Positions 4,848-48,146 are shown, counted from the stretch's first letter. The stretch is 64,000 nt of DNA from an uncultured bacterium (GCA_964410905.1 CAYPIR010000003.1:15986-79985); one strand, 5' to 3'. Translations and numbers: made by a program. Notes: generated from the letters alone by a model not told the origin.

Positions 4848-5090
4848 AATTGTAAAAATCAGTAATTTCGTAGACAGATTTTGATACTCGGTCATCCTGC
4901 GCGTTGTTTTTCAACGTCGCAGAATGACATAGACATAACGGACAAGCACCGAAGACACTTCGCCGTTTCGTGCCAACCATTGAGGATTGGCGCAGCCAAC
5001 CGTAAGGCTGCGGCACTTCCTGTAAAAGTTAATGCAAAGCCTATTAAACTTATTGACTTTTTTAATCAAATAAATAAAATGCCGCCTTCA
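4848..5090. repeat. MITE-like repeat, copy A. The left terminal inverted repeat is intact and the right end is degenerate.
   Basis: Starts gaattgtaaaaatcagtaatttcgtagacagattt. Internal modules (cttcgccgtttcgtgccaa...attgg..gcagccaaccgtaagg) are shared with the copies at 44274, 47559 and 13925. Confidence 0.5.
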
Positions 5091-5117
5091 TTGGCACTCG
5101 CACGCTTGGAGTGCTAA
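5091..5117 (+). promoter_or_regulatory. CIRCE operator (HrcA site) upstream of groEL
   Basis: ttggcactc-N9-gagtgctaa. Consensus is TTAGCACTC-N9-GAGTGCTAA. Confidence 0.8.
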
Positions 5118-5168: not shown

Positions 5169-6866
<1,698 letters not shown>

Positions 6867-7270: not shown

Positions 7271-8899
7271 ATGGCAAAAATTATTTCCTATTCCGAGGAA
7301 GCGCGCCAAAAAGTAAAACGCGGCATGGACATTCTCGCGCGCGCAGTCAGCGTTACATTGGGACCGCGCGGAAGAAATGTTGTTATCGATAAAAAATTCG
7401 GCGCTCCGCTTGTTACAAAAGACGGCGTTACCGTCGCTAAAGAAGTCGAATTAAAAGATCCGTATGAAAATATGGGCGCACAAATGGTTCGTGAAGTCGC
7501 CGAAAAAACTTCTGATAATGCCGGAGACGGAACGACGACCGCCACAGTTTTGGCTCAGGCGATTGTTTCAGAAGGCTTAAAAAACGTTACGGCAGGCGCA
7601 AATCCCATGGCGCTAAAGCGCGGCATTGATAAAGCGGCGGAAAAAATTGTGGAAACCATTAAAAAAATGTCAAAGTCCGTAAAAGGCAAAGATGACATTA
7701 CCGCAGTTGGCGCGATCAGCGCTAACAACGATTCTTCTATCGGGCAGCTTTTGGCTGACGCTCTTGAAAAAGTCGGCAAAGAAGGCGTTATAACGGTAGA
7801 AGAAGCCAAAGGGCTTAAGACAGAACTCGAAGTCGTTGAGGGTATGCAGTTTGATCGAGGATATTCTTCTCCATACTTTGCGACCGACACGGAACGAATG
7901 GAAGTGGTTTTAAAAGACCCTTACATTCTTCTTTTCGAGAAAAAAATCACCGCGGTAAAAGACCTTGTTCCCGTACTGGAAAAAGTTGCGGGGCTAGGCA
8001 AGCCTCTCCTCATTATCTCTGAAGATATTGAGGGAGAAGCGCTCGCGACACTTGTCGTAAACAAAATCCGCGGAGTGCTTCAAATCGCGGCAGTTAAGGC
8101 GCCAGGTTTTGGCGATCGCCGCAAAGCAATTATGGAAGATATTGCGGTTCTTACAAAAGGTAAGTTTATCTCCGAAGACCTTGGAGTGAAACTTGAGAAC
8201 GTAGAACTCGATCAGCTCGGAACGGCTGCGCGCGTTGTCATCGACAAAGATAATACAACTATCGTTGGCGGAGCTGGTTCGCAAAAAGACATTAAGGCTC
8301 GGCTTGAAGCGATTCGCGCGGAAATCGAGCGCTCGGATTCTGATTACGATAAAGAAAAACTTCAAGAACGCCTCGCGAAACTTTCCGGCGGCGTTGCCGT
8401 TGTGAAAGTCGGAGCCGCGACTGAAGTTGAGATGAAGGAAATGAAAGCGCGCATTGAAGACGCTCTTCACGCAACTCGCGCGGCAATCGAAGAAGGCATT
8501 GTCCCGGGAGGCGGAGTAGCGCTTCTTCGCGCAATTTCCGCTCTTGATGATGTCCGGGTAAAAGGCGACGAAGCAACAGGCGTTCAAATTGTCCGTCGCG
8601 CGCTTCAGGAGCCAGCGCGCAAAATCGCTTCCAATGCCGGCTTTGACGGTTCCGTTGTTGTCAAAAAAGTTTTAGACGGTAAAGGAGATTTTGGATTCAA
8701 CGCGCTTACTTGCGAATACGAAAACTTGGTTGAAGCAAAGGTCATCGACCCCGGCAAAGTTGTTCGTGTCGCCGTAGAAAATGCTTGCAGTATTGCAGGT
8801 CTTATTCTCACCACGGAATGTGTTGTGGCGGATAAGCCTAAGGAAGTTAAGGACGAGGATAAGAAAAAATCCTCCAATTACTCGGGCAGCATCGAGTAA
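7271..8899 (+). CDS. groEL: chaperonin GroEL, paralog 2, no GGM tail
   Basis: About 70% aa identity to paralog 1. AAAGGAG Shine-Dalgarno. Confidence 0.95.
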
Positions 8900-23879: not shown

Positions 23880-23962
23880 ATTCAGTCATTGCTGCAAAAG
23901 TTCATAATTTCGCGGACAAAACTGTTAACTTCTACAAACGCGGCCGATTGGCAATTTATTAA

Positions 23963-34900: not shown

Positions 34901-37900
34901 CTATGCTGATTTTGATATAGCGCCAAGAGCGAGTGCCGATATTTGAAGATTAGTGAATAAAAGTTCTGACGCGGATTGAACCGTTTTAGGCAATTCTTTC
35001 GAAGTAATAAGTTTGTCAATAGCAGCAAGAAAAGCATATGAGCGCATATCGATAGACAAGTCATCCGCTACTATCAATGTTTCATTTCGCAAAAGAGTAG
35101 AAGCTAACTTTTCTAAATTAGGACGCGCGTCTCGCCGCGCGTCATAGACAAGCGTTCTGATAATTTCTCCTTTAATAAAACCGCTAAGCGCGTTCACATC
35201 ATCCGTAACAGAAACCTTTACTCCTTTCCCTTTATTTTGCTGCGATTTTCTGACCGCCATAACTTGTCTGACAAAATTCCGTTCAAGCTCCCGCGCTTCA
35301 ACTTTAGAAATATTAGGTATCAATATTTGTATTTCTATCCCAGGTTTATCGGCAAGTAGCTGCTCCATTATTCGCATCAAAGAGTCATTCAGCGACGGCT
35401 TTTCATCCATCGCGATTGAAATTTTTAGGACATCCGTTTCGCTCTTATTTAGTATTTCGCGTGTTATATCTTCCGCCACCGCATCGCGTTCTTTATCAAC
35501 CCAAGCACCCGTCACAACCTCAGAATAAAACTTTTGCCATCCATTAGACGACATCGCATCAACTTCGCTTTGTCTAAAAACTCCTTTAGCAAACACGACC
35601 GTTACTTCTTTGCCAACTTGAGTTCCTCCGCGGCTTTCTGAGCGCGATAACTCAACAAAGTCTTGTAATGCGGAAGCCATCATCATATTCCCCAAAAAAC
35701 TCATCATAGGAATTACTGTTTCATTAAATTCCGATACGGCTTCTTCCGCGCGATTTCGCATAATTTCCGATTTAGAAAAAATATCGTTTATTTGATCAAA
35801 CAAATCTTCTCTTTCAGGTTCAGTAGCGTGAAACTTATTTAGCAGCTGCACCGCCGTTTTGTTGCTGTCCCAATTCTTTCCCATATGTATTGAAGGAACG
35901 CTCTGGCTTGTGGGCTCAAGCAAGTTATGATTTTCTCCCACTATTACCAACCTTGCCACGCCCAAAATCGGCAAAAGTTCTCCTGCTGTTTCAAGTCCAA
36001 TAATATCCGCGTTTCCCATCGGCTCGCCCTCGGCAAGCCCATTAAATCTTTTGGATTTTGCTCTATCTCCAATTCTGCGAAACTTTATTTTGCTGTCAGA
36101 AAGTCCATATTTTCCTGCTGTTTTCAGCAAAAATTCTTCTACCATTTTACCGCCATGCCTAACTCCCATAATTAAAAGAGGCTTTTGTTCTTTGGGAAAT
36201 TTTGCATACGCTTGAAAAATTTTTTCTATTTCTACATTGTTGGGGCTTGAGGCGACAATAATTATTCTGTCCGCGGAAACTCCCATTATTTTTCGAATTT
36301 CCTCATGTTTCTCATCTGAAATTTTTTGAGGCAAAACATATTTATATGGATCATGAGGGAGAATCAAACGCTCGTCATGAGACTTTCCAAAAAAAGGCGC
36401 ATTGCTAAAACTAATAGCTATTTCATTTTTCTTTCTCGCTGCGCTTTTAGATCTTATGTCATATCCAAGAAAACTTTCTTTAATTAGCCTTTCATTGACC
36501 TCTCCGCCATAAGTCAGAATAACTTGTTTTTCGCTAAGTCCTGTGGCCTTGATAAATCCACGCGTGGAGTTTATCGCCGCGACTTCGGGTATATCAAAAG
36601 TAATTTTAATGTTCTCTTCGTCAAGTCGTTTTATGATTTGAAATCCATGTCGCTTGATATTTTTAAAATCTACATCTTTTCGCATCGCCAGCCCCAGCAC
36701 TTTAGCGACTTCGATTGGATACGCGGCAAACCAATCTCTAATTTGCTTCATATCAAAACCCGCGTAATGAAGCGAATCTACTGCGTCAGCAAAACTAGGC
36801 TCTTTTAAAGAGGCTTCAAAGGAGTTGCTAAACTCTCTCGGCGGATTATTTCTCAAAGCTTCTATAAGAGCTGTTCTCCCCAGCGAATTTCGCGCACCAA
36901 GCCTGGCAATAGTGTTTACCGCCTCGGAAGACCGCAAAAATTTTTCAAAAATATTTTTCATAGAATCTTTTATATAATCCGCAACAAATTGCCCTTCTTC
37001 CAAAGAATCCAACCAAAGTTGTTCTATTTCTGTTTGCAAATCGTTGCCGTTATTTATTCTTTCTTCACTACGGCTTACATCGCCTCGCTCGCCATTAAAA
37101 TATTTATTCCATATGTCAGAGCGAACAAAAAGCAAGGCGCTATACTTGCCCCCAAAGGGCTTGGCGATATCAAAGCCATCTATTTTCGCAGCCACGGCAC
37201 TTTCATCACCTAACTTGTCATAAAATTCATCCAAAACAAACGCAAAATCAGAAATGCCTGTTGTTAAAATCATCGCAGGCTTAAGCCGCATAATTTCTTC
37301 TAAAAATGACAGACCATAGTCATACGCAATATTCATAACAACAATAGGATTTTTCCATTCCTCTGGATTGACTTCCCCAGAATCAATCCCCTCGCCAAGA
37401 TATTTCACTATTTGAAACTGAGAGGCTTCCAAACCATTATTTTTAAGATTAGCGACAAGAGATTTTCGTTTCCTCGCGCCCGGCTCTACATATAAAACTT
37501 TTTTAGGATTATTAAACGCAAGCCCCAATTTCCCGTCATCTGCTCCAAAATCAACTACAGAAAAATTATTTGTAAGCGATGCTATTTTTTGAATTAACGA
37601 TAAAGCAATATGCGTTGACGCAATTGGCGTTTCAATGACATCTCCTTCGCGATCTGTTTCCTCTATGCCTTCATCCTTTTCTCTTCCAAGGACTTCTTTA
37701 ACGGCATAATCGGAAACTCCAAATCCGGGAGACTCCAGCGAGATAAATTTCATGTGCGGGTATTTTCCATGCAGATTCTCAGCAATCGCTCTTGTCTCTC
37801 GTTGTTCTCTATAATAGACAATATCACCATGCCGTCTAAATAACACTACGCGACGACCTTCTAAATCTCCTTCGATAAATTCCAGCGGAATGATTTTCAT

Positions 37901-40900
37901 ATTGTCCTGAGCGGGCGGGTAAAAATCAGCAGCAACATTTTCAAATTTTTCTCGAGCAAGGTTTAAAAAATCATTCATAGGGTTTTCAGTATCTTCGCGA
38001 AGAACTTCCTCAAATAATTTTTGTCTTGTAGATTGAACCAAACCTTTAGAACCAAAAATATTACGCTCAGAATAATTAGAATTTTCAACCGACTTCCTCG
38101 CTTGTCTAATTTCATGTTTTGCTTCGTCTATATTCTCAAATGGTGAAATGTCCAGCATTTCGCTTCGGCCATCATCGCGTTGTATATTTTTAAAATATTT
38201 TTCTAAAGCGTCGCGGAATTCATCTTTATACCGAGCCGGCGCGTAAATCGGCGTCGAATATGAGCCATTGATTAGTTTTACAGGAATGTTTTGTTCACGC
38301 AAAAATTCAAATATTCCTTTTATCTGTTTCTCTATGTTTCCTTTTGAAGGAAGATTAACCACATCCGTTGTCCATTGCCCGTCCCTAGCAAAAAAATCCA
38401 TATCAATCGAGACAATAACTCCTTGCTTTAGCCCCTCAGAATGCTTTGCTATGACAGATTTCCAATCACTTGTCATTGCCGCAAAATCTTTTTCATCGCC
38501 TAAAAGACTTCTGCCTTCGCTTGGGTAAAACCAAAATGCTTCACCGACATCGCCTTCCTTCAACAAAGATGTCACCCAATTAGACAAATCAATGCCGTTA
38601 ATTAATTTAGGAGAATTATCGCTGTGATAATCAAAAAGAAGCATGGGCAGCCCTTTAGAAATTATTCCGTTTTGAACGCCATAATGAATTTGGTTGTAGG
38701 CTCCATCGTGGTTACTCGTAATTTCAAAGATGTTGTTGTTCAATTCACTGGCTCGTGTTTCACTTCTAACAGTGCTAGTCAACATAGAATCGTCTGTTTC
38801 CCGCAACGCTAACAATATCGTTGCTTTTGCCGCGATTTTCATTAATGGAAATTCTACATTTTTAAAGTCATCGACCGCCTGTCGTATGTTCTCTTGTATT
38901 TGTTCTGAATGGTTAAGCGTGGAGTTTATTTGATTAAAAAAATCTCTTTCATTTACGACTTGGACAGCGTTAAACGCACCTAAAATATTTATTGCGCTTC
39001 GGTTATTTGTCCAATTTCCGTCAAAGAAAAGCGTGGGAACCTCTTGGCTCATAGGCTCAAACAAATTACGATTTTCTCCCACTATTGCCAAATCCGCCAC
39101 CGCAAAAAAAGATCTCAACTCACCTTGCGTGTTCAAAATAACTATGTCCGCGTCGCCCATCGGGACCTCTTCGGCAGTTCCATTAAAAGACCCACCTGGT
39201 AACATATCTTTTTCAGATCTGACGCGGATCTTATTTCTTCCGAGCTCAATTTTGCCCATATCCCCTTTAAGAATATCATTAACCAAAGTAGCCTTAGTAT
39301 TGCGCATGCCGACAATTAAAAGTGGTCGTTCGTTTTCGGGATACTCGCTATACGCTTTAATGGTTTTTTTGAGCTCTTCATTTTTCGGGCTTGACAGTAT
39401 TATTATTTTTCTGTTCGGTAAAACTTCCATTTTCTCACGAAGAATTTTGCGCTCCTCAGCCGAAATTTTTTGAGGCAAGGCATATTTATAAGGGTCATAA
39501 GGAATAAACATCGAGGGGAGAATACTAATAACTCTTTCTCCGTCATGAAACGCCGCGACAATTTCGTTCGCGGGATTAAGTTTCCCTCTAATAAATTCTC
39601 TAACTCTAAAATCGGGGAAATTATCTTTTAACATTTTTATGGAAACCTCTCTGTCAGCCAACAAAACAGCTTTTCTCGCATCTATGTTTGCCGCGTTCAA
39701 AAAGCCACGAATGGCGTTCATTGATGCGGCTTCATACACTTGAAATAAAATTGTTTTACTAGTTTTATTCAAACGCTTTGCCAAACTTCTCTCATCGCGC
39801 AATATCTCTATTACCTTTTTCTTGTCTCCTTTGAAAAACAAAAGAAATTCAGTAATTTGGCTTATTGTCTGACGTAACGCGCCGTTTAAATTTGTCTCAC
39901 TGCTGCGGTTTAAAATCTCCTCGCCAACCAAAATTTTTAAGATTTCCCAAGCCTTAGAAAAAAGATCAAAGCCAATGTCTCCATCTATAAAAAGCAAAAA
40001 CTCCGCCACATCAAATGGATTTTGTTTAAAAATTTTTTGAATATCAAAGCCCAAAACTTCTATGACTTTTCCCATTGTTTTAGAAAAAGAAAGAGAATAT
40101 AAAAAATTTTTCACTTCTAATGGAGCTTTAATGAAAGCGGCTTGAATTGTATCAGCGTCCAAAACTTCCGTATTATCAAGGTAAGTAAAGCGCGGCTTCT
40201 TACGTGACGTTTCATGAGAGAATGAAAACAACGCTTTTAAAAATACATCGCGAGATGTCTTAATTGATTCCCTAACAGTCTCCAAACCTAAGACCTTGTG
40301 TTTCGTAAGCTCGCGTAAAGCGTCAAAAACTAATAAACCATAGGAAAAATTATCAACGGAAATGCTTTCCACCATTTTAAAAAATAAAGCCGTATCCGCA
40401 CCTAATATTTCGCATAAAAAATCCGCCCCCAAAATATCCGCTAATTCTTTTAAGGTTTCTACATCTGCCGTCTTTATTTCCGGAAAATCCTTTGCCATAT
40501 ACATGGAAGTTGCTGCTATCAAATCTTCTACGGTTTTCCGCGTTTCACTTCGTGGGCGTTGAGCTTTTTCTAAGTATTTTTGCGCGACATCTTTTCGGAC
40601 AAACAAAACAGCTCGATAATTTCCTTGATTTGGTATTTCAAAAAAGTGTCCGCCTGAAGCAATAATTTGCGGCTGATATGAAGTCGCGAGCATTTCCTTT
40701 TGGGCGTCTTTGGCAAAAAGACTTCCAAAAATATCTTCGTATCCAAGATGAGAAAAATATTCGTGTCCCGTTGTAAGAACCATCGCGGGCTGAAGTTTTT
40801 TTATTGTTTCCAAATATCCGCCGCCGTAATCATAGGCAACATTCATTACGACAAATGCATCTTTCCAATCTTTCGGATTAATATCGTCTTCCAAAGACGC

Positions 40901-43396
40901 CCAAAGCGATTCAATAACTTTATATTTTGAGTTGTCCCAACTGTTGCTCTTTAAATTACATTCGATAATTTTTCTTTTACTTTCATCTTTTTCGACAAAC
41001 AAAACTTTGGGTGCGTCTTTAAAAACAAGCCCCAGTTTGCCGTCATCCGAACCAAAATCAACCATAGGCAAGTCTTTAACTTGAGGCATGACTTCTTGAA
41101 TAATAGAAAGTGCGGCATGCGTTGTCGCGGGAGGCGTCAAAACGCCTCGTTCAGTGCTTTCAAAAAATTCTGGATATTCCAATGAAACGAATATGAATTG
41201 TGAAAACCTATTTTTAATTTCACGGACCATGTCGGCAGCGTCATTACTATCGCGGTAATAAATAACATTTCCGTGCCTGCGAAAAATAAGCCCAAGCCGT
41301 CCGTCTATAGTCGCTTCAATAAATTCCAGCGGGAATATTTCCCCTTCAATGTTTGCCGTTGGGTAGAAATCTATGGCAGCATCTTGGAATTTTTGCCGCG
41401 CCCGCGCGAGCAAATCCGCCATCGGGCTGTTCTTGTCTATTTTTATAATATCTTCAACAAAAGCCCGTCTCTTTGCTGGCGGCAAATCTGAAAAAATTTT
41501 GTTTGCAAGTCCCTCGCCCAAAGTCCTTCCGAGCATAATATGTCGAATTAGGTCTTCCGGCGAAGCGTCCGTAACCCATTCATTAGCATTGTCTGCGGTC
41601 CCCTTAACGCCTGACATTGCCTCTCTTACTTCAGAGCGGATAAATTCAGCTGTGTCCGCATCAAAACCTTCTGTGCCGCTTAAAACAGGAGAAAATCTGA
41701 CAAAAGAATCGGAGAGATTGTCATTCCGCGCGTTGTTTTTCAACATTGAAGAATCCAAAAGATTACTCTCTTGGGTTCCGATCTCCTTATCGGGACTAGT
41801 CAATGCTCGCTGCGTTGACACAAATAGTCGCTGCTCAATCGCCGCGTCCAATTTAAATTCGTCGTCGTGTAATGGCAAGTCGGTTTTACCGTTTCTATTC
41901 GTTGCTCCAAGCGTCATCGTTTTTATGTAATTATCATTATTAGTTTTGCTCGTTATGCGCGGCAAAATTCGAACATATGATAAATTTTTATTTTTAAAAA
42001 TATTTTCTAATCCCGCTGTATGAAAACCTCCTGTTATTAAAATTGCGCTCTGAATATTTAAATCCTTTATCTTCGCGAACATTTGTTCAAACATCACATC
42101 GTCACGTTTTATAGCAACTTCATAAAACTTTAACGCAAGCCTAACCGCGTAAGGCAAATCATTTTCAGCCAAAACACCCCGAGCTTCTTGATATTCCTCA
42201 TGCGTAAGCTCCAGTTCCAACAAGCTTTTAAGAAGTAGATATTTTTTGTACTGTGCTACTATTCTTTGCTCGTCATGAGTTTTTGAAAGCGCCGTCAAAA
42301 TTATCTCGTTTATTCTTTTTGTTTCTCTCAAAAGCTCTTCAGCTCGAATTTCTTGGCCCAAAAGCCTTGCCCCTAAAAGTTTTACAAGCGCCGGATAATC
42401 CTGAAATTCAAACCCTAAATCCTGTGTTTCATTTAAAAACTTCTCAAGAAACGAGCGAATATCTTTTTCTTCTTCAAGAAAATTCTTAAAAGCCGCTTGA
42501 TAATCTTCACTGAAATTATTTTCAGCCAGCCATGTGATAAGTTTGGTTTGCTCTTTTTTTATTGTCTCCCGTGTTCCCTCGGTTTGTTTCTCTAATTCTT
42601 GCAGTTTGAAAAATCTCACAAGCTGCGGAAAATCATGTTGTTCGCGAGCGTTTGATAAATCTATATTTAAAATATCAAGAGCTGTTTTTTTCAGAAAACC
42701 AAGCCGTGAAATAAAATCTTTTTGTATCTCAGATTGAAAAATCCATTCACGGAAAAAATTTTTAAAATTAGGGTTGGTGTTTTTTGCAACTTCTTGTTTA
42801 AGACTTTGTTTTAATTTAAGCAAAATTTTTGAAGCTTCTTTTTTGTGAGAGTAAACCTCTCTAAAAAGCTTTAATTCTTCAAGATAAAGTTCTCTATTCT
42901 CTACGCCAAAAACCTCCGCGCCGGACTTATCAGAAAACAGAAATCTCTCAACGCCTCCGACAATTCCCTTTTCGGTTAATTTATCTATGAGTTTTAAATT
43001 TGCATCTTCTTCGTTGAAAAATCGGAGCAATTCTTTTTTCTGTTTCCCAACTCCGCCTTCTACAAAAATAGTTTTTATTCCATATTCTTTTTCAAGATGT
43101 CGCAAAATTTGCTCTTGATTTTTCTGCGCCTCGACACTTCCGTGCGCGTCTTCTATGTGAACAATAGAAATTGGATAAGAAAATTTCGCTTCATTTTCCG
43201 GTTGAGAAATATACATGTCTTTGATACTTCCAACGCAAAGAGGTATTTCAATTTTAGAAATTATTGAGGGAGCGCGATTTTGGCTAAAATCTATGGCGGG
43301 CGCGGCAAACGCAACATTTGTCCAAAAGAAAACGATGGACATAAAAATAGCGATATTTTGCCGCGCTAACAGTTTATATTTTTTACATTTAGACAT
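34901..43396 (-). CDS. 2831-aa N-terminally anchored giant multidomain protein. It has a domain shared with the 964-aa protein, two methyltransferase-like domains, two WaaA/KdtA-like GT-B domains, and an arginase/deacetylase-like middle segment.
   Basis: Single ORF with an ATG at 43396. Internal duplication aa 658-1530 vs 1807-2580. Motifs DTQGEL..ADLAIVGEN and IIILSSPKNEE resemble WaaA. Confidence 0.75.
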   Translation of the reverse strand: MSKCKKYKLLARQNIAIFMSIVFFWTNVAFAAPAIDFSQNRAPSIISKIEIPLCVGSIKDMYISQPENEAKFSYPISIVHIEDAHGSVEAQKNQEQILRHLEKEYGIKTIFVEGGVGKQKKELLRFFNEEDANLKLIDKLTEKGIVGGVERFLFSDKSGAEVFGVENRELYLEELKLFREVYSHKKEASKILLKLKQSLKQEVAKNTNPNFKNFFREWIFQSEIQKDFISRLGFLKKTALDILNIDLSNAREQHDFPQLVRFFKLQELEKQTEGTRETIKKEQTKLITWLAENNFSEDYQAAFKNFLEEEKDIRSFLEKFLNETQDLGFEFQDYPALVKLLGARLLGQEIRAEELLRETKRINEIILTALSKTHDEQRIVAQYKKYLLLKSLLELELTHEEYQEARGVLAENDLPYAVRLALKFYEVAIKRDDVMFEQMFAKIKDLNIQSAILITGGFHTAGLENIFKNKNLSYVRILPRITSKTNNDNYIKTMTLGATNRNGKTDLPLHDDEFKLDAAIEQRLFVSTQRALTSPDKEIGTQESNLLDSSMLKNNARNDNLSDSFVRFSPVLSGTEGFDADTAEFIRSEVREAMSGVKGTADNANEWVTDASPEDLIRHIMLGRTLGEGLANKIFSDLPPAKRRAFVEDIIKIDKNSPMADLLARARQKFQDAAIDFYPTANIEGEIFPLEFIEATIDGRLGLIFRRHGNVIYYRDSNDAADMVREIKNRFSQFIFVSLEYPEFFESTERGVLTPPATTHAALSIIQEVMPQVKDLPMVDFGSDDGKLGLVFKDAPKVLFVEKDESKRKIIECNLKSNSWDNSKYKVIESLWASLEDDINPKDWKDAFVVMNVAYDYGGGYLETIKKLQPAMVLTTGHEYFSHLGYEDIFGSLFAKDAQKEMLATSYQPQIIASGGHFFEIPNQGNYRAVLFVRKDVAQKYLEKAQRPRSETRKTVEDLIAATSMYMAKDFPEIKTADVETLKELADILGADFLCEILGADTALFFKMVESISVDNFSYGLLVFDALRELTKHKVLGLETVRESIKTSRDVFLKALFSFSHETSRKKPRFTYLDNTEVLDADTIQAAFIKAPLEVKNFLYSLSFSKTMGKVIEVLGFDIQKIFKQNPFDVAEFLLFIDGDIGFDLFSKAWEILKILVGEEILNRSSETNLNGALRQTISQITEFLLFFKGDKKKVIEILRDERSLAKRLNKTSKTILFQVYEAASMNAIRGFLNAANIDARKAVLLADREVSIKMLKDNFPDFRVREFIRGKLNPANEIVAAFHDGERVISILPSMFIPYDPYKYALPQKISAEERKILREKMEVLPNRKIIILSSPKNEELKKTIKAYSEYPENERPLLIVGMRNTKATLVNDILKGDMGKIELGRNKIRVRSEKDMLPGGSFNGTAEEVPMGDADIVILNTQGELRSFFAVADLAIVGENRNLFEPMSQEVPTLFFDGNWTNNRSAINILGAFNAVQVVNERDFFNQINSTLNHSEQIQENIRQAVDDFKNVEFPLMKIAAKATILLALRETDDSMLTSTVRSETRASELNNNIFEITSNHDGAYNQIHYGVQNGIISKGLPMLLFDYHSDNSPKLINGIDLSNWVTSLLKEGDVGEAFWFYPSEGRSLLGDEKDFAAMTSDWKSVIAKHSEGLKQGVIVSIDMDFFARDGQWTTDVVNLPSKGNIEKQIKGIFEFLREQNIPVKLINGSYSTPIYAPARYKDEFRDALEKYFKNIQRDDGRSEMLDISPFENIDEAKHEIRQARKSVENSNYSERNIFGSKGLVQSTRQKLFEEVLREDTENPMNDFLNLAREKFENVAADFYPPAQDNMKIIPLEFIEGDLEGRRVVLFRRHGDIVYYREQRETRAIAENLHGKYPHMKFISLESPGFGVSDYAVKEVLGREKDEGIEETDREGDVIETPIASTHIALSLIQKIASLTNNFSVVDFGADDGKLGLAFNNPKKVLYVEPGARKRKSLVANLKNNGLEASQFQIVKYLGEGIDSGEVNPEEWKNPIVVMNIAYDYGLSFLEEIMRLKPAMILTTGISDFAFVLDEFYDKLGDESAVAAKIDGFDIAKPFGGKYSALLFVRSDIWNKYFNGERGDVSRSEERINNGNDLQTEIEQLWLDSLEEGQFVADYIKDSMKNIFEKFLRSSEAVNTIARLGARNSLGRTALIEALRNNPPREFSNSFEASLKEPSFADAVDSLHYAGFDMKQIRDWFAAYPIEVAKVLGLAMRKDVDFKNIKRHGFQIIKRLDEENIKITFDIPEVAAINSTRGFIKATGLSEKQVILTYGGEVNERLIKESFLGYDIRSKSAARKKNEIAISFSNAPFFGKSHDERLILPHDPYKYVLPQKISDEKHEEIRKIMGVSADRIIIVASSPNNVEIEKIFQAYAKFPKEQKPLLIMGVRHGGKMVEEFLLKTAGKYGLSDSKIKFRRIGDRAKSKRFNGLAEGEPMGNADIIGLETAGELLPILGVARLVIVGENHNLLEPTSQSVPSIHMGKNWDSNKTAVQLLNKFHATEPEREDLFDQINDIFSKSEIMRNRAEEAVSEFNETVIPMMSFLGNMMMASALQDFVELSRSESRGGTQVGKEVTVVFAKGVFRQSEVDAMSSNGWQKFYSEVVTGAWVDKERDAVAEDITREILNKSETDVLKISIAMDEKPSLNDSLMRIMEQLLADKPGIEIQILIPNISKVEARELERNFVRQVMAVRKSQQNKGKGVKVSVTDDVNALSGFIKGEIIRTLVYDARRDARPNLEKLASTLLRNETLIVADDLSIDMRSYAFLAAIDKLITSKELPKTVQSASELLFTNLQISALALGAISKSA

Positions 43397-44199: not shown

Positions 44200-44223
44200 T
44201 TTTTAGTCTCAAAAAATAAAAGA

Positions 44224-44251
44224 GCCAGACAGTTTAATGTCTGGCTTTTTT
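44224..44251 (+). terminator. rho-independent terminator after sod
   Basis: gccagac-agtttaat-gtctggc followed by T6. Confidence 0.65.
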
Positions 44252-44273: not shown

Positions 44274-44672
44274 TTGTAAAAATCAATAATTTCGTGAACA
44301 GATTTAATTCTAAAGTTATCCTGCGCATTGTTATTTAAACGTCGCAGGATCCAGGTGTTGAGCGCCTCTGGATTCTGCAACGCCACTACGTTTCGTGCAG
44401 AATGACCAGATTGTCTCGCTTTTGTAGGCGGAATGACATAACGGACAAGTGCCGAAGGCGCTTCGCCGTTTCGTGCCAATCCATTGGGGATTGGTGCAGT
44501 CAACCGTAAGGTTGCTGAAAAGACGCTACGGCGAAGCCGAGCGCTTGCCCTGTATTTGCGTATCGGACGCAAATGCGGTACTTCCTGTATCGATGCATTG
44601 GGCATCGATGCGGAATGACGTAAAAATAAAAAACCTTCAACAAATCTGTCTACGAAATTATTGGCTTTTACA
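44274..44672. repeat. MITE-like element, copy B, ~400 bp with ~30-bp terminal inverted repeats
   Basis: Left end aattgtaaaaatcaataatttcgtgaacagattt. Right end aaatctgtctacgaaattattggcttttacaat. Confidence 0.6.
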
Positions 44673-44757
44673 ATAAAAAACGACATCAATGACAAACTGC
44701 GCCTCAAAAAGCGAGGAGGTTTGAAATCGATGCCGTTTTTTTGTTTTTCTTGGCTAC

Positions 44758-47433
44758 TTAAAAATCATACCTCACGGTTGCGTAATAGGTGTGGCTTATA
44801 TAACGATCGCGAATTTCCATATCCCAATTACCCGTGAGAGTGAAATTCCCTTTTGATAAAAAGGCAATTTCCGCTCCGAGTAAAAGTCCGCTTTTAGACG
44901 GTTTCGCGCCGCGCACAAGAAAGGAATTTCCGCCGCCAGCAAAACTCGCGCGCGTCTCGTATCGCTTCCCAATATAATCATAAAGCCAAGCGCCTTTGAT
45001 TGACGGAACAAATGTTCCAACTTCTGTTTTGATTTGGTATTGCAGTTTAAGCCCAAGCGTTTGTTCTAATGTGTGATACCCCTTCCCTTTAACCGATAAA
45101 TCCAAATCGCCCGCGCCATTTTCGTCATATCCATGAAGCCGCAAATAACTATATTCCAGTCCGACAAATGGCGTAATCTCCAAATGCTTAAGCTCCGCCG
45201 ATGTCATCGTATAACCTAGTTCAAACTTTGAACTATATTCCTGCCCGCTATGTTCCGCTTTTGCCACGCGGTCAAGCGCGCTTGTTATTGCTATTTCTCG
45301 GCGGCTCTTATATTCGTCCCATGTAAAAGCTATCATGCTGTCGGCATACCAAAAATTCTCGCCGTAGTTTCTGACCGCCGCTCTCTGGTTGGCTCCATAA
45401 GCCCTGCCGGCGCACAAATCAAGCGAGTCATAGCTGCCATACAAACTAAAACTGTAACTATTAATTTGTTCCGTGGGATTTCCCGGCCGTTTTGAGTCAA
45501 CATCCGCGTAACCATATCCCGCCGCCGCGCCGACTCTAAAGTGGCTGTCCAGCTGCCTATCTATACCGACCGTTGTCCCATAGGAGTTTGACGTAAAACC
45601 CTCAATGCCTTTTCGCGTCTTCTGCTCCATATGATTCCCTAAGCCTTGCAGCCAGACACCAAGCCCGGTTATCGTCTCGCCTGATGAAATTCCGCTTTGG
45701 AAAAATCCGTGCCGCACGCTGCCCAAGCGATTACTAACTGAACGCATATGATTCCCCGTCAGCATTTTGCTTCCGCGCGCGATTCCTGAACTTATATCCG
45801 GCATCATTGTCGAAAGCGCTTTTTGCACCTCTTCAGAACTCATCCCATCTAAAGCATTAAGCACATCCAGCATATCGCCTTGGGCGTTTGGCATATTGTC
45901 TAAAACTTCGCCAACCATTCTTGAGTTTTCATCCTTTCCAGCATCGCTCGCGAATCCGCCCGCGCGGCTGAGCATAAGACTCAATATCCCATCATGAATG
46001 CTTTCAGTCCCTGTATACCGGTCTGAGAAAAGCGTCAGCAAACCATCAAAATCTAATGTGCCGCCCGCGCTCAAAATATCTACTGTCGTTCCGTTAGCAT
46101 AATATCCCGATGCAAGCGAGACATCGATGTCCCCGCTAACATCTATATCACCGTCCGCAACAACAGAACCATAATCATTTTCCGCTATCGTGAGCGCAAG
46201 CGTAGAACCGGCAGCTTGGTCAAAATCCCCGCCGATAAGTAACTGCGTTGTCCCGAGTTCAAGAGTGCCAGCATCCAATAAAACATTGCCTGTCCCAAGC
46301 GCCTGGGAATTTCCAACAATTACTGTTCCGGCGCTAACTGTCGTCCCGCCTTCATATGTATTCGCTCCAGAAATAGTAAGCGTGCCATCTCCTTCTTTTG
46401 TTAAACTACCGTCCCCGCTTATAACCCCAGAAAAAATTGTATCCTCGTCATTTCCTCCGACTGTCAAATCAGCTGTTCCTAAATCTACATCGCCAGCTCC
46501 GCTTAACCCTTGCACAGTTTGATCATAATCATTCAAGTCGAACGAAGCGCCAGATTGAACTGCTAAACCAGAACTAGTGGAAATTATATCCGCAGCTCCT
46601 GCTTGTAATGTTCCAGCACTAACTGTCGTTCCGCCTGTATATGAATTAGCTCCAGAAAGAGTGAGTGTTCCTGTCCCAGTCTTTGTCAAACTTCCTGAAC
46701 CGCTTAACCCCCCACTCATTGCAGCCACACTTTCATTGCCTATAGTCCCGCCATTAGCTTCCAACGTCCATGCACCAGCGTAACTATCTCCTGTTAAAAT
46801 CAACCTTCCGCCGTTAAGAGTTCTGCTAGTCGAATATAAAGTATCAGCAAATATTGATAATTCGCCCCCAGTATTGATAGAGATAACGTTTGAAAATAAA
46901 CTTCCACCCTCAGCAATAGTTACCGTCCCTTCATTATTCACAGTTAGGTTGCCTATAAGATTTCCGCCAGAGTTGACAATAACAGCACCTTCCGGCGATA
47001 TAACAATTCCTCCATATGAGGCAACATCTCCACCGTCTGGATTGGAACCGCCACTAATTGTAAATATTCCGTGATCAAAGTTAAATACACCCAGTGTAAT
47101 CCAGTTTCCACCTGCTAAAGTGAGATCCGCAAGAGTCGAATTAACATTGGCGCCATTGACATGCGCCGAACCAATAGAAATATCGGCATCTTGGTCGATG
47201 GTAATATCATCGTCATGTGTAGGCACCGTTGAGGTGTCCCAGTTAGAAGAGTCAGTCCACGTGGAACCATCTCCGCCACCAGTCCAAGTTACAGTGGCAG
47301 CAAATGAAACTGGCGAGAAAATAGAAAGGAGAAAAATGAGAGAAGTAAGAAGAGTTAAACTGCGGAAGAAAAACGAACGCGGATAACTATTTGTTTGTTT
47401 GTTTGTTTGTTTGTTTGTTTGTTTGTTTAGCAT
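44758..47433 (-). CDS. autotransporter (type Va) outer-membrane protein
   Basis: Signal peptide. G/T-rich passenger with TGTGTLTLSGANSYTGGTTVSAGTL repeats. C-terminal beta-barrel ending ...YATVRYDF. Confidence 0.85.
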   Translation of the reverse strand: MLNKQTNKQTNKQTNSYPRSFFFRSLTLLTSLIFLLSIFSPVSFAATVTWTGGGDGSTWTDSSNWDTSTVPTHDDDITIDQDADISIGSAHVNGANVNSTLADLTLAGGNWITLGVFNFDHGIFTISGGSNPDGGDVASYGGIVISPEGAVIVNSGGNLIGNLTVNNEGTVTIAEGGSLFSNVISINTGGELSIFADTLYSTSRTLNGGRLILTGDSYAGAWTLEANGGTIGNESVAAMSGGLSGSGSLTKTGTGTLTLSGANSYTGGTTVSAGTLQAGAADIISTSSGLAVQSGASFDLNDYDQTVQGLSGAGDVDLGTADLTVGGNDEDTIFSGVISGDGSLTKEGDGTLTISGANTYEGGTTVSAGTVIVGNSQALGTGNVLLDAGTLELGTTQLLIGGDFDQAAGSTLALTIAENDYGSVVADGDIDVSGDIDVSLASGYYANGTTVDILSAGGTLDFDGLLTLFSDRYTGTESIHDGILSLMLSRAGGFASDAGKDENSRMVGEVLDNMPNAQGDMLDVLNALDGMSSEEVQKALSTMMPDISSGIARGSKMLTGNHMRSVSNRLGSVRHGFFQSGISSGETITGLGVWLQGLGNHMEQKTRKGIEGFTSNSYGTTVGIDRQLDSHFRVGAAAGYGYADVDSKRPGNPTEQINSYSFSLYGSYDSLDLCAGRAYGANQRAAVRNYGENFWYADSMIAFTWDEYKSRREIAITSALDRVAKAEHSGQEYSSKFELGYTMTSAELKHLEITPFVGLEYSYLRLHGYDENGAGDLDLSVKGKGYHTLEQTLGLKLQYQIKTEVGTFVPSIKGAWLYDYIGKRYETRASFAGGGNSFLVRGAKPSKSGLLLGAEIAFLSKGNFTLTGNWDMEIRDRYISHTYYATVRYDF
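47390..47428 (-). repeat. tetranucleotide repeat, (TTTG)9 on the plus strand and (AAAC)9 in the coding sense, within codons 3-14 of the autotransporter
   Basis: tttgtttgtttg... encodes NKQTNKQTNKQTN immediately after ATG-CTA. Confidence 0.9.
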
Positions 47434-47558
47434 ACATTGTCAAACCTCACAAGGTTGGGGATCAAAATAAAAGAATACAAAACGGTTTCACATTTTACTA
47501 TTTCGGCAAAAAATTTAAATGCTTAAATACAAATAAATACAAATAACTTTTGTCATTA

Positions 47559-48146
47559 GTGTAAAAGTCAATAATTTCGCAGACAGATTTGTTGAGGGTT
47601 TTTGTTTTTTTATTATCGCTGGCGAAAGCGAGACAATCTGGTCATTCTGCCCCAACGCCCAATGCATCGATACAGGAAGTCCCGCATTTGCGTCCGATAC
47701 GCAAATACAGGGCAAGCGCTCGGCTTCGCCGTAGCGTCTTTTCAGCAACCTTACGGTTGACTGCACCAATCCCCAATGGATTGGCACGAAACGGCGAAGC
47801 GCCTTCGGCACTTGTCCGTTATGTCATTCCGCGTGAAGCGAAGCGGAGTCGCGGAATCCACAAGGCAAGACGAGGCGTTCCTTGAGCCTCGCTTGGCAGT
47901 GGTTGCACATAGGTGCAACTAGAGGCTCTCAACACTTGGATCCTGCAACGTCCGCTTTAGCGGTCGCGCAGGATGACGTAATGGACGAGAGCGGTGAAGC
48001 CGGCTCGCTATTACGTATCGGCGAATTCAAACTAGACGAGACGACAAAGTCTCGCTTGTTTGTGTCAATGCAACAAGTATTGACTTGTCGCCGATGCTGC
48101 TTAACTAAATCTGTCTACGAAATTATTGACTTTTACAGGGATGATG
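47559..48146. repeat. MITE-like element, copy C, ~590 bp. Its internal modules are inverted relative to copy B.
   Basis: Left end gtaaaagtcaataatttcgcagacagattt. Right end aaatctgtctacgaaattattgacttttaca. Internal sequence is the reverse complement of copy B modules. Confidence 0.6.

Follow-up and report, generated by a model that had tools for sequence, protein, structure and literature searches.

Intergenic repeat elements of probable IS481 origin bracket an autotransporter gene in an uncultured bacterium

Repeat elements around the autotransporter gene

The window analysed here is a stretch of 64,000 nucleotides (nt) from an uncultured bacterium (GCA_964410905.1 CAYPIR010000003.1:15986-79985), in which an autotransporter gene is bracketed by two intergenic repeat elements lying in opposite orientation. 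Across the whole 64-kb window the element family counts three repeat-bounded copies, one solo terminal repeat and two repeat-less fragments, and its members are probably (with a probability of roughly 65%) non-autonomous miniature inverted-repeat transposable elements (MITEs) derived from an insertion sequence (IS) of the IS481 family. The features on which this reading is built are given below, with positions counted from the first nucleotide of the window; lengths of proteins are in amino acids (aa), and ORF denotes an open reading frame.

44275-44672, plus strand: element copy 1, 398 bp, intergenic, between the convergent superoxide dismutase (SOD) and autotransporter genes; left repeat 44275-44305, module B hairpin 44316-44352, module C hairpin 44370-44406, 16-nt piece 44407-44422, module D 44428-44619, right repeat 44642-44672
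44428-44619, plus strand: module D of copy 1, with the 10-mer GCGGAATGAC at both edges
47560-48137, minus strand: element copy 2, 578 bp, separating the lysA 3' end from the promoter region of the autotransporter gene; right-type repeat 47560-47590, module D 47641-47832, then a variant C region, module B 47921-47982, extra module A 47983-48102, left-type repeat 48107-48137
47641-47832, minus strand: module D of copy 2, with the edges GTCATTCTGC and GTCATTCCGC in plus-strand reading
4851-~5066, plus strand: element copy 3, deleted and decayed, ~216 bp, between coaX and the CIRCE/groEL region; left repeat 4851-4881 (2 mismatches), module B 4891-4928, partial module D 4932-5011, half-degenerate right repeat ~5040-5066
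23885-23938, plus strand: solo degenerate repeat, core 23893-23923 (23/31), in the spacer between the methyltransferase and ClC channel genes
13925-14045, minus strand: repeat-less fragment, flanked by the stop codon of a 964-aa ORF and the actual GH1 start
41720-41891, plus strand: B-like and A-like modules within a 2831-aa ORF, their order swapped relative to copy 2
44758-47433, minus strand: autotransporter, 891 aa, with a PF03797 beta domain and PATR repeats; the bracketed gene, not part of the element

Once reverse-complemented, copy 2 aligns with copy 1 over the full length, so that the two are the same element in opposite orientation; together with copy 3 they are three copies of one element. 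The shared order runs from the left repeat through module B (a GTCATCCTGCG...CGCAGGAT hairpin), a variable C region, module D and an A-rich subterminal stretch to the right repeat. Copy 2 differs from copy 1 by an additional module A of ~120 nt after the left repeat and by a different C region, and copy 3 keeps the same module order without C and without the distal half of D. The fragment at 13925-14045 has no terminal repeat, and its core (13968-14026) is 88% identical to module D of copies 1 and 2.

A sequence-only reading of this DNA had described the internal modules of the flanking elements as reverse complements of each other, with partial copies at 4848-5090 and 13925-14045 and with coaX, GH1 and an autotransporter as neighbouring genes. 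All of this stands: the internal arms are 44428-44619 and 47641-47832 (192 nt at 97%), the first partial copy retains the left repeat, B, D and a half-decayed right repeat, the second retains the core of module D only, and the neighbouring genes are as named. The outer limits of 44274 and 48146 were off by 1 and 9 nt, the exact extents being 44275-44672 and 47560-48137; the inverted repeat of copy 2 has a weak extension to 47548/48149. The same reading had assigned no coding capacity to the elements, and this is supported, as their internal ORFs match no Pfam family and find only their own sequence among 5.8 billion proteins. A 157-aa ORF spanning copy 1, compared with these 5.8e9 proteins in a hunt for further copies hidden in spurious gene calls, returned its own sequence only. 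No transposase of IS481 type is encoded in the window.

Terminal inverted repeats and their IS481 relatives

The 31-bp terminal inverted repeat, TGTAAAAGTCAATAATTTCGTAGACAGATTT, occurs at five sites in the window with 0-3 mismatches, namely 4851 (+), 44275 (+), 44642 (-), 47560 (+) and 48107 (-), and no match at this tolerance (<=3 mismatches) appeared in 100 dinucleotide-preserving shuffles of the window. When the tolerance was raised to 10 mismatches, the sole extra site was 23893 (+), with 8 mismatches, and none appeared in five shuffles. Terminal inverted repeats of ~30 bp bounding an element family, as proposed from the sequence alone, are therefore confirmed (five sites with <=3 mismatches and one degenerate site, 0 expected), and they recur at the ends of other elements, the same repeat lying at 4851 and a degenerate one at 23893. 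The two arms are complementary at 27/31 positions in copy 1 and at 30/31 in copy 2, and every repeat copy starts with TGT except the solo copy at 23893 (TGC).

Relatives of the repeat were sought by scanning a one-genome-per-species collection (GTDB-representative) with a degenerate repeat core, and the JGI metagenomes, the host genome being in neither. Of the 44 loci from the genome collection, 43 lacked TGTAAAA and were due to chance; the only real one, L034, is a contig of a termite-gut metagenome-assembled genome (MAG) that carries the label Alphaproteobacteria. Among the four metagenome loci, L049 and L050 were chance matches, L048 was the L034 contig itself, and L051 held a solo repeat from the same metagenome as L034. 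The repeat is found at 30/31 both in L034 (3489-3962) and in L051 (6613-6643), and the GC content of that MAG is 41-45%. A scan of viral contigs gave a single match, which was due to chance, and a comparison of copy 2 with plasmids in distant mode gave no match.

The L034 repeat lies 36 nt upstream of a 135-aa ORF that represents a truncated transposase N-terminus. It is distantly homologous to a single protein, P0003, the alignment starting at residue 1 with 37% identity over 99 aa (E 1e-10 in a search of 5.8e9 sequences). At the locus L052, P0003 is followed by an rve_3 ORF with the motif TRPYRPQTNGKVERLWRTL. Joined, P0003 and the rve_3 ORF match the NCBIfam family transpos_IS481 (NF033577) with E 5.9e-44 and 150.7 bits, the next family being IS3 at 5e-12; this score falls below the curated cut-off of 224, the gene being broken, and it belongs to a relative and not to a window element. 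The joined transposase also matches Pfam rve and rve_3, and the plasmid proteins closest to it carry the annotation IS481 family transposase. Within L052 the MITE repeat is matched best (22/31) exactly at the left end of the element, 39 nt before the start codon, a value that 0 of 300 shuffles reached; the inner core, GTAATTCGCTGACAGATT, recurs at the right end, so that the element measures 1,059 bp. At the solo repeat of the window (23885-23938), the similarity runs 15 nt further into the interior of the L034 insertion sequence, amounting to 78% over 55 nt.

Because the repeat abuts a transposase remnant in L034, and because a homologous end occupies the same position in the IS481 element of L052, the window repeats can be read as IS481-type ends, which supports the MITE-like nature first proposed for the elements. 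The three bounded copies share their internal order and polarity, as predicted by descent from one transposing unit. Members of the IS481 family, in the ISfinder definition, have ends starting with TGT, inverted repeats of ~30 bp, a length of ~1-1.3 kb and flanking direct repeats of 4-15 bp. The elements conform to this in their TGT ends and ~30-bp repeats, as does the L052 relative in its length and its single DDE (rve) transposase; unlike family members, the window elements have no transposase, and flanking direct repeats of 4-15 bp are not seen.

A mosaic interior

The interior of the elements is a mosaic of palindromic modules, similar to repetitive extragenic palindromes (REPs), that are joined by a 10-mer, and it does not consist of transposase debris. 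The 10-mer, GTCATYCYGC (complement GCRGRATGAC), occurs nine times in the window against 0.23 expected, and all nine copies lie within elements or fragments, at module borders. Copies 1 and 2 have diverged unevenly, their identity being 186/192 (97%) in module D, 29/31 (94%) in the right repeat, 28/31 (90%) in the left repeat, 77% in the subterminal stretch, 72% in module B and 47% in the C region. The edges of the 97% block coincide exactly with the 10-mers on both sides, and a 16-nt piece, CAGATTGTCTCGCTTT, lies 5' of D in copy 1 and 3' of D in copy 2. This pattern would be explained by a recent exchange of exactly one module, D, between the flanking copies, most simply through gene conversion across inverted repeats 3 kb apart, and the exchange does show that the two copies can recombine.

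Modules are also found within the 2831-aa ORF, where 41720-41754 is B-like (86% to copy 3) and 41789-41891 is A-like (71% to copy 2 over 104 nt). The giant ORF, which runs on the opposite strand, reads the stretch 41720-41891 in frame as aa 502-559 of its protein, and the palindromes of this stretch are largely lost. More than 2,000 distant homologues of this protein were found, with which it shares aa 380-498 only, and its only close match is the protein itself; the module-derived part begins just past this conserved domain. The in-frame stretch may have arisen by insertion. The giant ORF (34901-43396, minus strand) has no Pfam domain, contains an internal duplication with a spacing of 3141-3144 nt and has homologues in proteins of up to 7,818 aa.

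Insertion sites and the alternative of a mosaic array

Several observations weigh against the derivation of the elements from an IS481-family insertion sequence. First, no target-site duplication was found at copies 1, 2 and 3 or around the pair formed by copies 1 and 2; the flanks of copy 1 (GCGAGAAT and ATAAAAAA) and of copy 2 (GTCATTAG and GGGATGAT) hold no direct repeat of >=3 bp. Second, the bases outside TGT are non-random and look like truncated 10-mers, of the forms GCGRGAAT/TGT and GTCATTSC/TGT (the slash marking the junction). The individual junctions read GCGAGAAT/TGT at the left of copy 1, GCGGGAAT/TGT at the left of copy 3, GTCATTAG/TGT and ATCATCCC/TGT at copy 2, GTCATTGC/TGC at the solo repeat (23893) and GTCATTCC/TGT in L034. 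Third, an intact autonomous partner with these exact repeats was found neither in the genome, metagenome, viral and plasmid scans nor in the window. Fourth, L034 is labelled Alphaproteobacteria, whereas the LysA protein of the window is closest to Omnitrophota MAGs (72-74% identity). Fifth, modules occur outside repeat pairs, also in altered order (13968-14026; 41720-41891).

The lacking duplications could reflect age, or a mechanism or target unlike the model. The 10-mer-like flanks, considered over eight ends, suggest insertion into palindromes or a longer terminal sequence, in which case the mobile unit or its target may differ from the repeat-to-repeat model. As for the taxonomic discrepancy, either the insertion sequence crossed phyla or one of the taxon labels is wrong; the window itself probably belongs to Omnitrophota, an assignment drawn from a single protein, LysA.

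Mosaic repeats are familiar from Neisseria, as intergenic mosaic elements (NIMEs) with their dRS3 repeats, and from E. coli, as bacterial interspersed mosaic elements (BIMEs, the REP mosaics). In these, short intergenic modules of variable order and orientation are linked by a short conserved junction repeat that forms part of a palindrome and at which other mobile elements land. The modular interior described here recalls them, while the junction sequence is different and the arrays are enclosed by IS-type terminal repeats. It is conceivable, though in our view unlikely, that the family is such an array, whose true units would be the palindromic modules bounded by GCRGRATGAC, spread or shuffled by recombination at this motif or by a REP-type transposase. 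The 31-bp repeats would then be left over from an insertion sequence with a preference for landing in these palindromes and would play no part in moving the unit. The abundance of the 10-mer and its constant position at module borders, the exact 10-mer-to-10-mer span of the 97% block, the 16-nt piece on opposite sides of D, the repeat-less and order-swapped modules, the flanks resembling cut 10-mers and the lack of target-site duplications would all fit this, as would the fact that the termite-gut genome with the repeat also has arrays of GTCAT-starting palindromes near a solo repeat. Nevertheless, three loci share module order and polarity between left-type and right-type repeats, which is hard to obtain via independent insertions into arrays that already existed. 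In the window, every module array of more than ~170 nt has remnants of the repeats, and the few ORFs scanned included neither a REP-type transposase nor a recombinase.

On L051, at least seven palindromic units (GTCATTGCGAG...CTCGCAATGAC) lie at 5598-5965, ~650-1000 nt from the solo repeat of that locus. The 8-mer GTCATTGC also adjoins the solo repeat of the window, at 23885.

A further and more speculative possibility arises because the 192-nt module D is motif-bounded exactly and 97% identical in two otherwise diverged copies. GCRGRATGAC may be the junction at which a module-shuffling repeat system of this (probably Omnitrophota) lineage recombines; modules would move or convert as units, the motif would attract IS481-type ends, and modules would be recruited as strand-specific RNA structures in 3' untranslated regions (3'-UTRs) and as an in-frame linker of the giant protein. 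We regard this as rather doubtful.

Probable further copies and a proposed history

The elements also leave a trace in short-read assemblies. Across three runs, the SOD-bearing contigs end inside copy 1, at 44348, 44369 and 44396, and in two runs the lysA-bearing contigs end at 48108, the inner edge of the repeat. Since no identical 30-mer exists elsewhere in the window, these breaks would be caused by a branch from a copy outside it, which implies additional copies beyond the window. In the closest relative by LysA (74% identity, GC 56%), synteny is not kept 3' of lysA, and neither the repeat nor a module is present there. No empty site was recovered, the collections searched containing no close relative. 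This relative (GCA_964508905.1, L061 2997-5928) has the order argG-argH-lysA followed by genes for ORF6N, a DUF1016 nuclease and a BrnT toxin, so that the spot downstream of lysA appears to collect accessory genes in this group.

If the elements derive from an IS481-family insertion sequence, their 31-bp ends, starting with TGT, would be the sites for binding and cutting by an IS481-type DDE (rve) transposase, and a full-length copy located elsewhere could mobilise, in trans, an element consisting of ends only. The ancestor common to the copies, repeat-bounded and with the interior B-C-D, would have reached at least three intergenic sites in the 64 kb. Later divergence may have involved gain and loss of modules, deletion (copy 3) and decay (the solo repeat at 23893 and the repeat-less fragments), and one module may have been exchanged between the copies flanking the autotransporter gene by gene conversion. 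At present the elements are presumably inactive. Their likeliest effect on the neighbouring genes would be to insulate the autotransporter promoter from the lysA operon by a barrier of strongly folded 3'-UTR.

Folding and a possible RNA role

Whole elements fold far better than shuffled sequences (z -11.2 and -12.5), as expected from their terminal repeats and palindromes. The idea that they could act as structured RNA when co-transcribed thus holds as far as the strong folding is concerned (z about -11 to -12), while an RNA role is at most possible, and for module D only. Module D of copy 1 adopts a multi-hairpin fold that is 15 kcal/mol better on the plus strand than on its complement, and in three copies the sense strand folds 9-19 kcal/mol better than the complement, with 5, 8 and 4 G.U pairs against 1, 3 and 1. 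At copy 2, copy 3 and the fragment at 13925, as well as on the SOD side of copy 1, transcription of the upstream gene would yield the favoured strand. Across the copies, 92% of cells in module D are paired, and in a single hairpin both partners of two pairs are altered.

On the one hand, these features would be expected of a functional structured RNA in which module D, co-transcribed at the 3' ends of upstream genes, acts as a stabiliser, a processing site or a block to read-through, a role that would be compatible with a MITE origin. On the other hand, good folding is trivial for palindromic DNA, and the copies share descent, so that the strand asymmetry is not independent evidence. The covariation in module D, taken from three distinct sequences only, is not above that of shuffles (87/500), the better-folding strand is inconsistent for whole interiors, and no hairpin of the elements has a T-run after it. 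Rfam 15 gave one tRNA as the only match in the window at the gathering score, and inside the elements no match even at E<=1. A dedicated RNA function therefore seems improbable to us.

The bracketed autotransporter gene

The autotransporter gene carries a (TTTG)9.8 tract at 47390-47428, which reads as (CAAA)n on the coding strand, covers codons 2-15 ahead of the signal peptide and is currently in frame; by its form this is a classic tract for slipped-strand phase variation. A promoter-like site is predicted at 47519->47492, inside the bracketed segment. The GC content at third codon positions (GC3) of the gene is 0.40, which is typical of the window, and an exact look-up of the protein gave no record.

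The sequence-only reading had likened the gene between its inverted repeats to a composite cassette, of which only the geometry survives: the outer flanks differ, the GC3 value is typical and the promoter-like site lies within the segment. Two independent insertions would have opposite orientations in half of all cases. We hold it very improbable that the inverted elements form a composite transposon or invertible cassette, which would mobilise the autotransporter gene as cargo or flip it as a second switch beside the tetranucleotide phase variation. The outer repeats at 44275 and 48137 are indeed 89% complementary, the inverted arms include 192 nt at 97%, enough for homologous recombination, an interaction between the two copies is suggested by the block of high identity, and the closest relative differs in what lies downstream of lysA. 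However, the 3.86-kb unit has no surrounding duplication (flanks GCGAGAAT and GGGATGAT), the GC3 of the cargo (0.40) does not set it apart from the window, and no recombinase gene is adjacent, the neighbours being SOD, lysA and argH. Inversion of the bracketed segment is physically possible, but with the promoter-like site and the ribosome-binding site both inside the segment it would not uncouple promoter from gene and hence would not switch expression. A second arrangement was not seen in the short-read contigs, which are unable to span the repeats.

Group II intron, retron, integron attC and Xer/dif readings were rejected, as there is no Rfam match, inspection by eye revealed nothing like the R'/R'' boxes of attC sites, the resemblance to a XerC arm was limited to 8 nt, and the link to IS481 is specific.

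Other features near the elements

Between copy 3 and groEL (ATG at 5222) lies an operator of the CIRCE (controlling inverted repeat of chaperone expression) type at 5091-5117, TTGGCACTC-N9-GAGTGCTAA, which suggests control of the chaperonin by HrcA. Two tandem Cpn60/GroEL paralogues lie at 5175-6866 and 7271-8899, and their conserved stretches recur at an exact spacing of 2048 nt. Downstream of SOD, a bidirectional terminator-like hairpin with T-runs (AGCCAGACA...TGTCTGGCT) occupies 44223-44246, its end 28 nt short of copy 1.

Comparison with known repeats and significance

Insertion sequences have given rise to MITEs in other bacteria, an instance being RUP of pneumococcus with IS630-Spn1. 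Two further cases are MiniMdi3/ISMdi3 in Methylobacterium (PMC2680597) and MITECca01/ISCca4 in Cardinium (PMC9769881). The window elements are like such IS-derived MITEs in being a few hundred bp long, multi-copy, intergenic and strongly self-complementary, in having no transposase, and in having ends that match a transposase-bearing element. They are unlike them in that the IS481 parent could be traced only to a remnant in a different genome, no duplication is visible, and the interior consists of shuffled palindromic modules and is not a simple internal deletion of the parent. A literature search on IS481 and MITE found no description of an IS481-derived MITE.

Correia elements (Correia repeat enclosed elements, CREE) of Neisseria are likewise small, with terminal inverted repeats, often located by phase-variable surface-protein genes, co-transcribed and strongly folded; unlike the elements described here they measure 100-155 bp, with 26-bp repeats and a TA duplication, and there is no sequence similarity between the two. 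The in-frame modules of the giant ORF (aa 502-559) recall Rickettsia palindromic elements (RPE), in which a palindromic repeat also lies in frame in a protein gene; here, in contrast, it is a single case, 71-86% identical to the element modules and with its palindromes largely gone.

The family is thus an ordinary kind of bacterial repeat with an unusually modular interior. The finding serves annotation and adds nothing new on mechanism, and the modular interior together with the in-frame fragment would be of wider interest only if the modules move on their own. It gives a repeat family of a poorly known uncultured lineage a concrete origin in IS481, and the elements explain why short-read assemblies of this organism break at these points. 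They also mark recombination-prone spots beside a phase-variable surface-protein gene, where inverted segments that are 97% identical and 3 kb apart could drive inversion or gene conversion.

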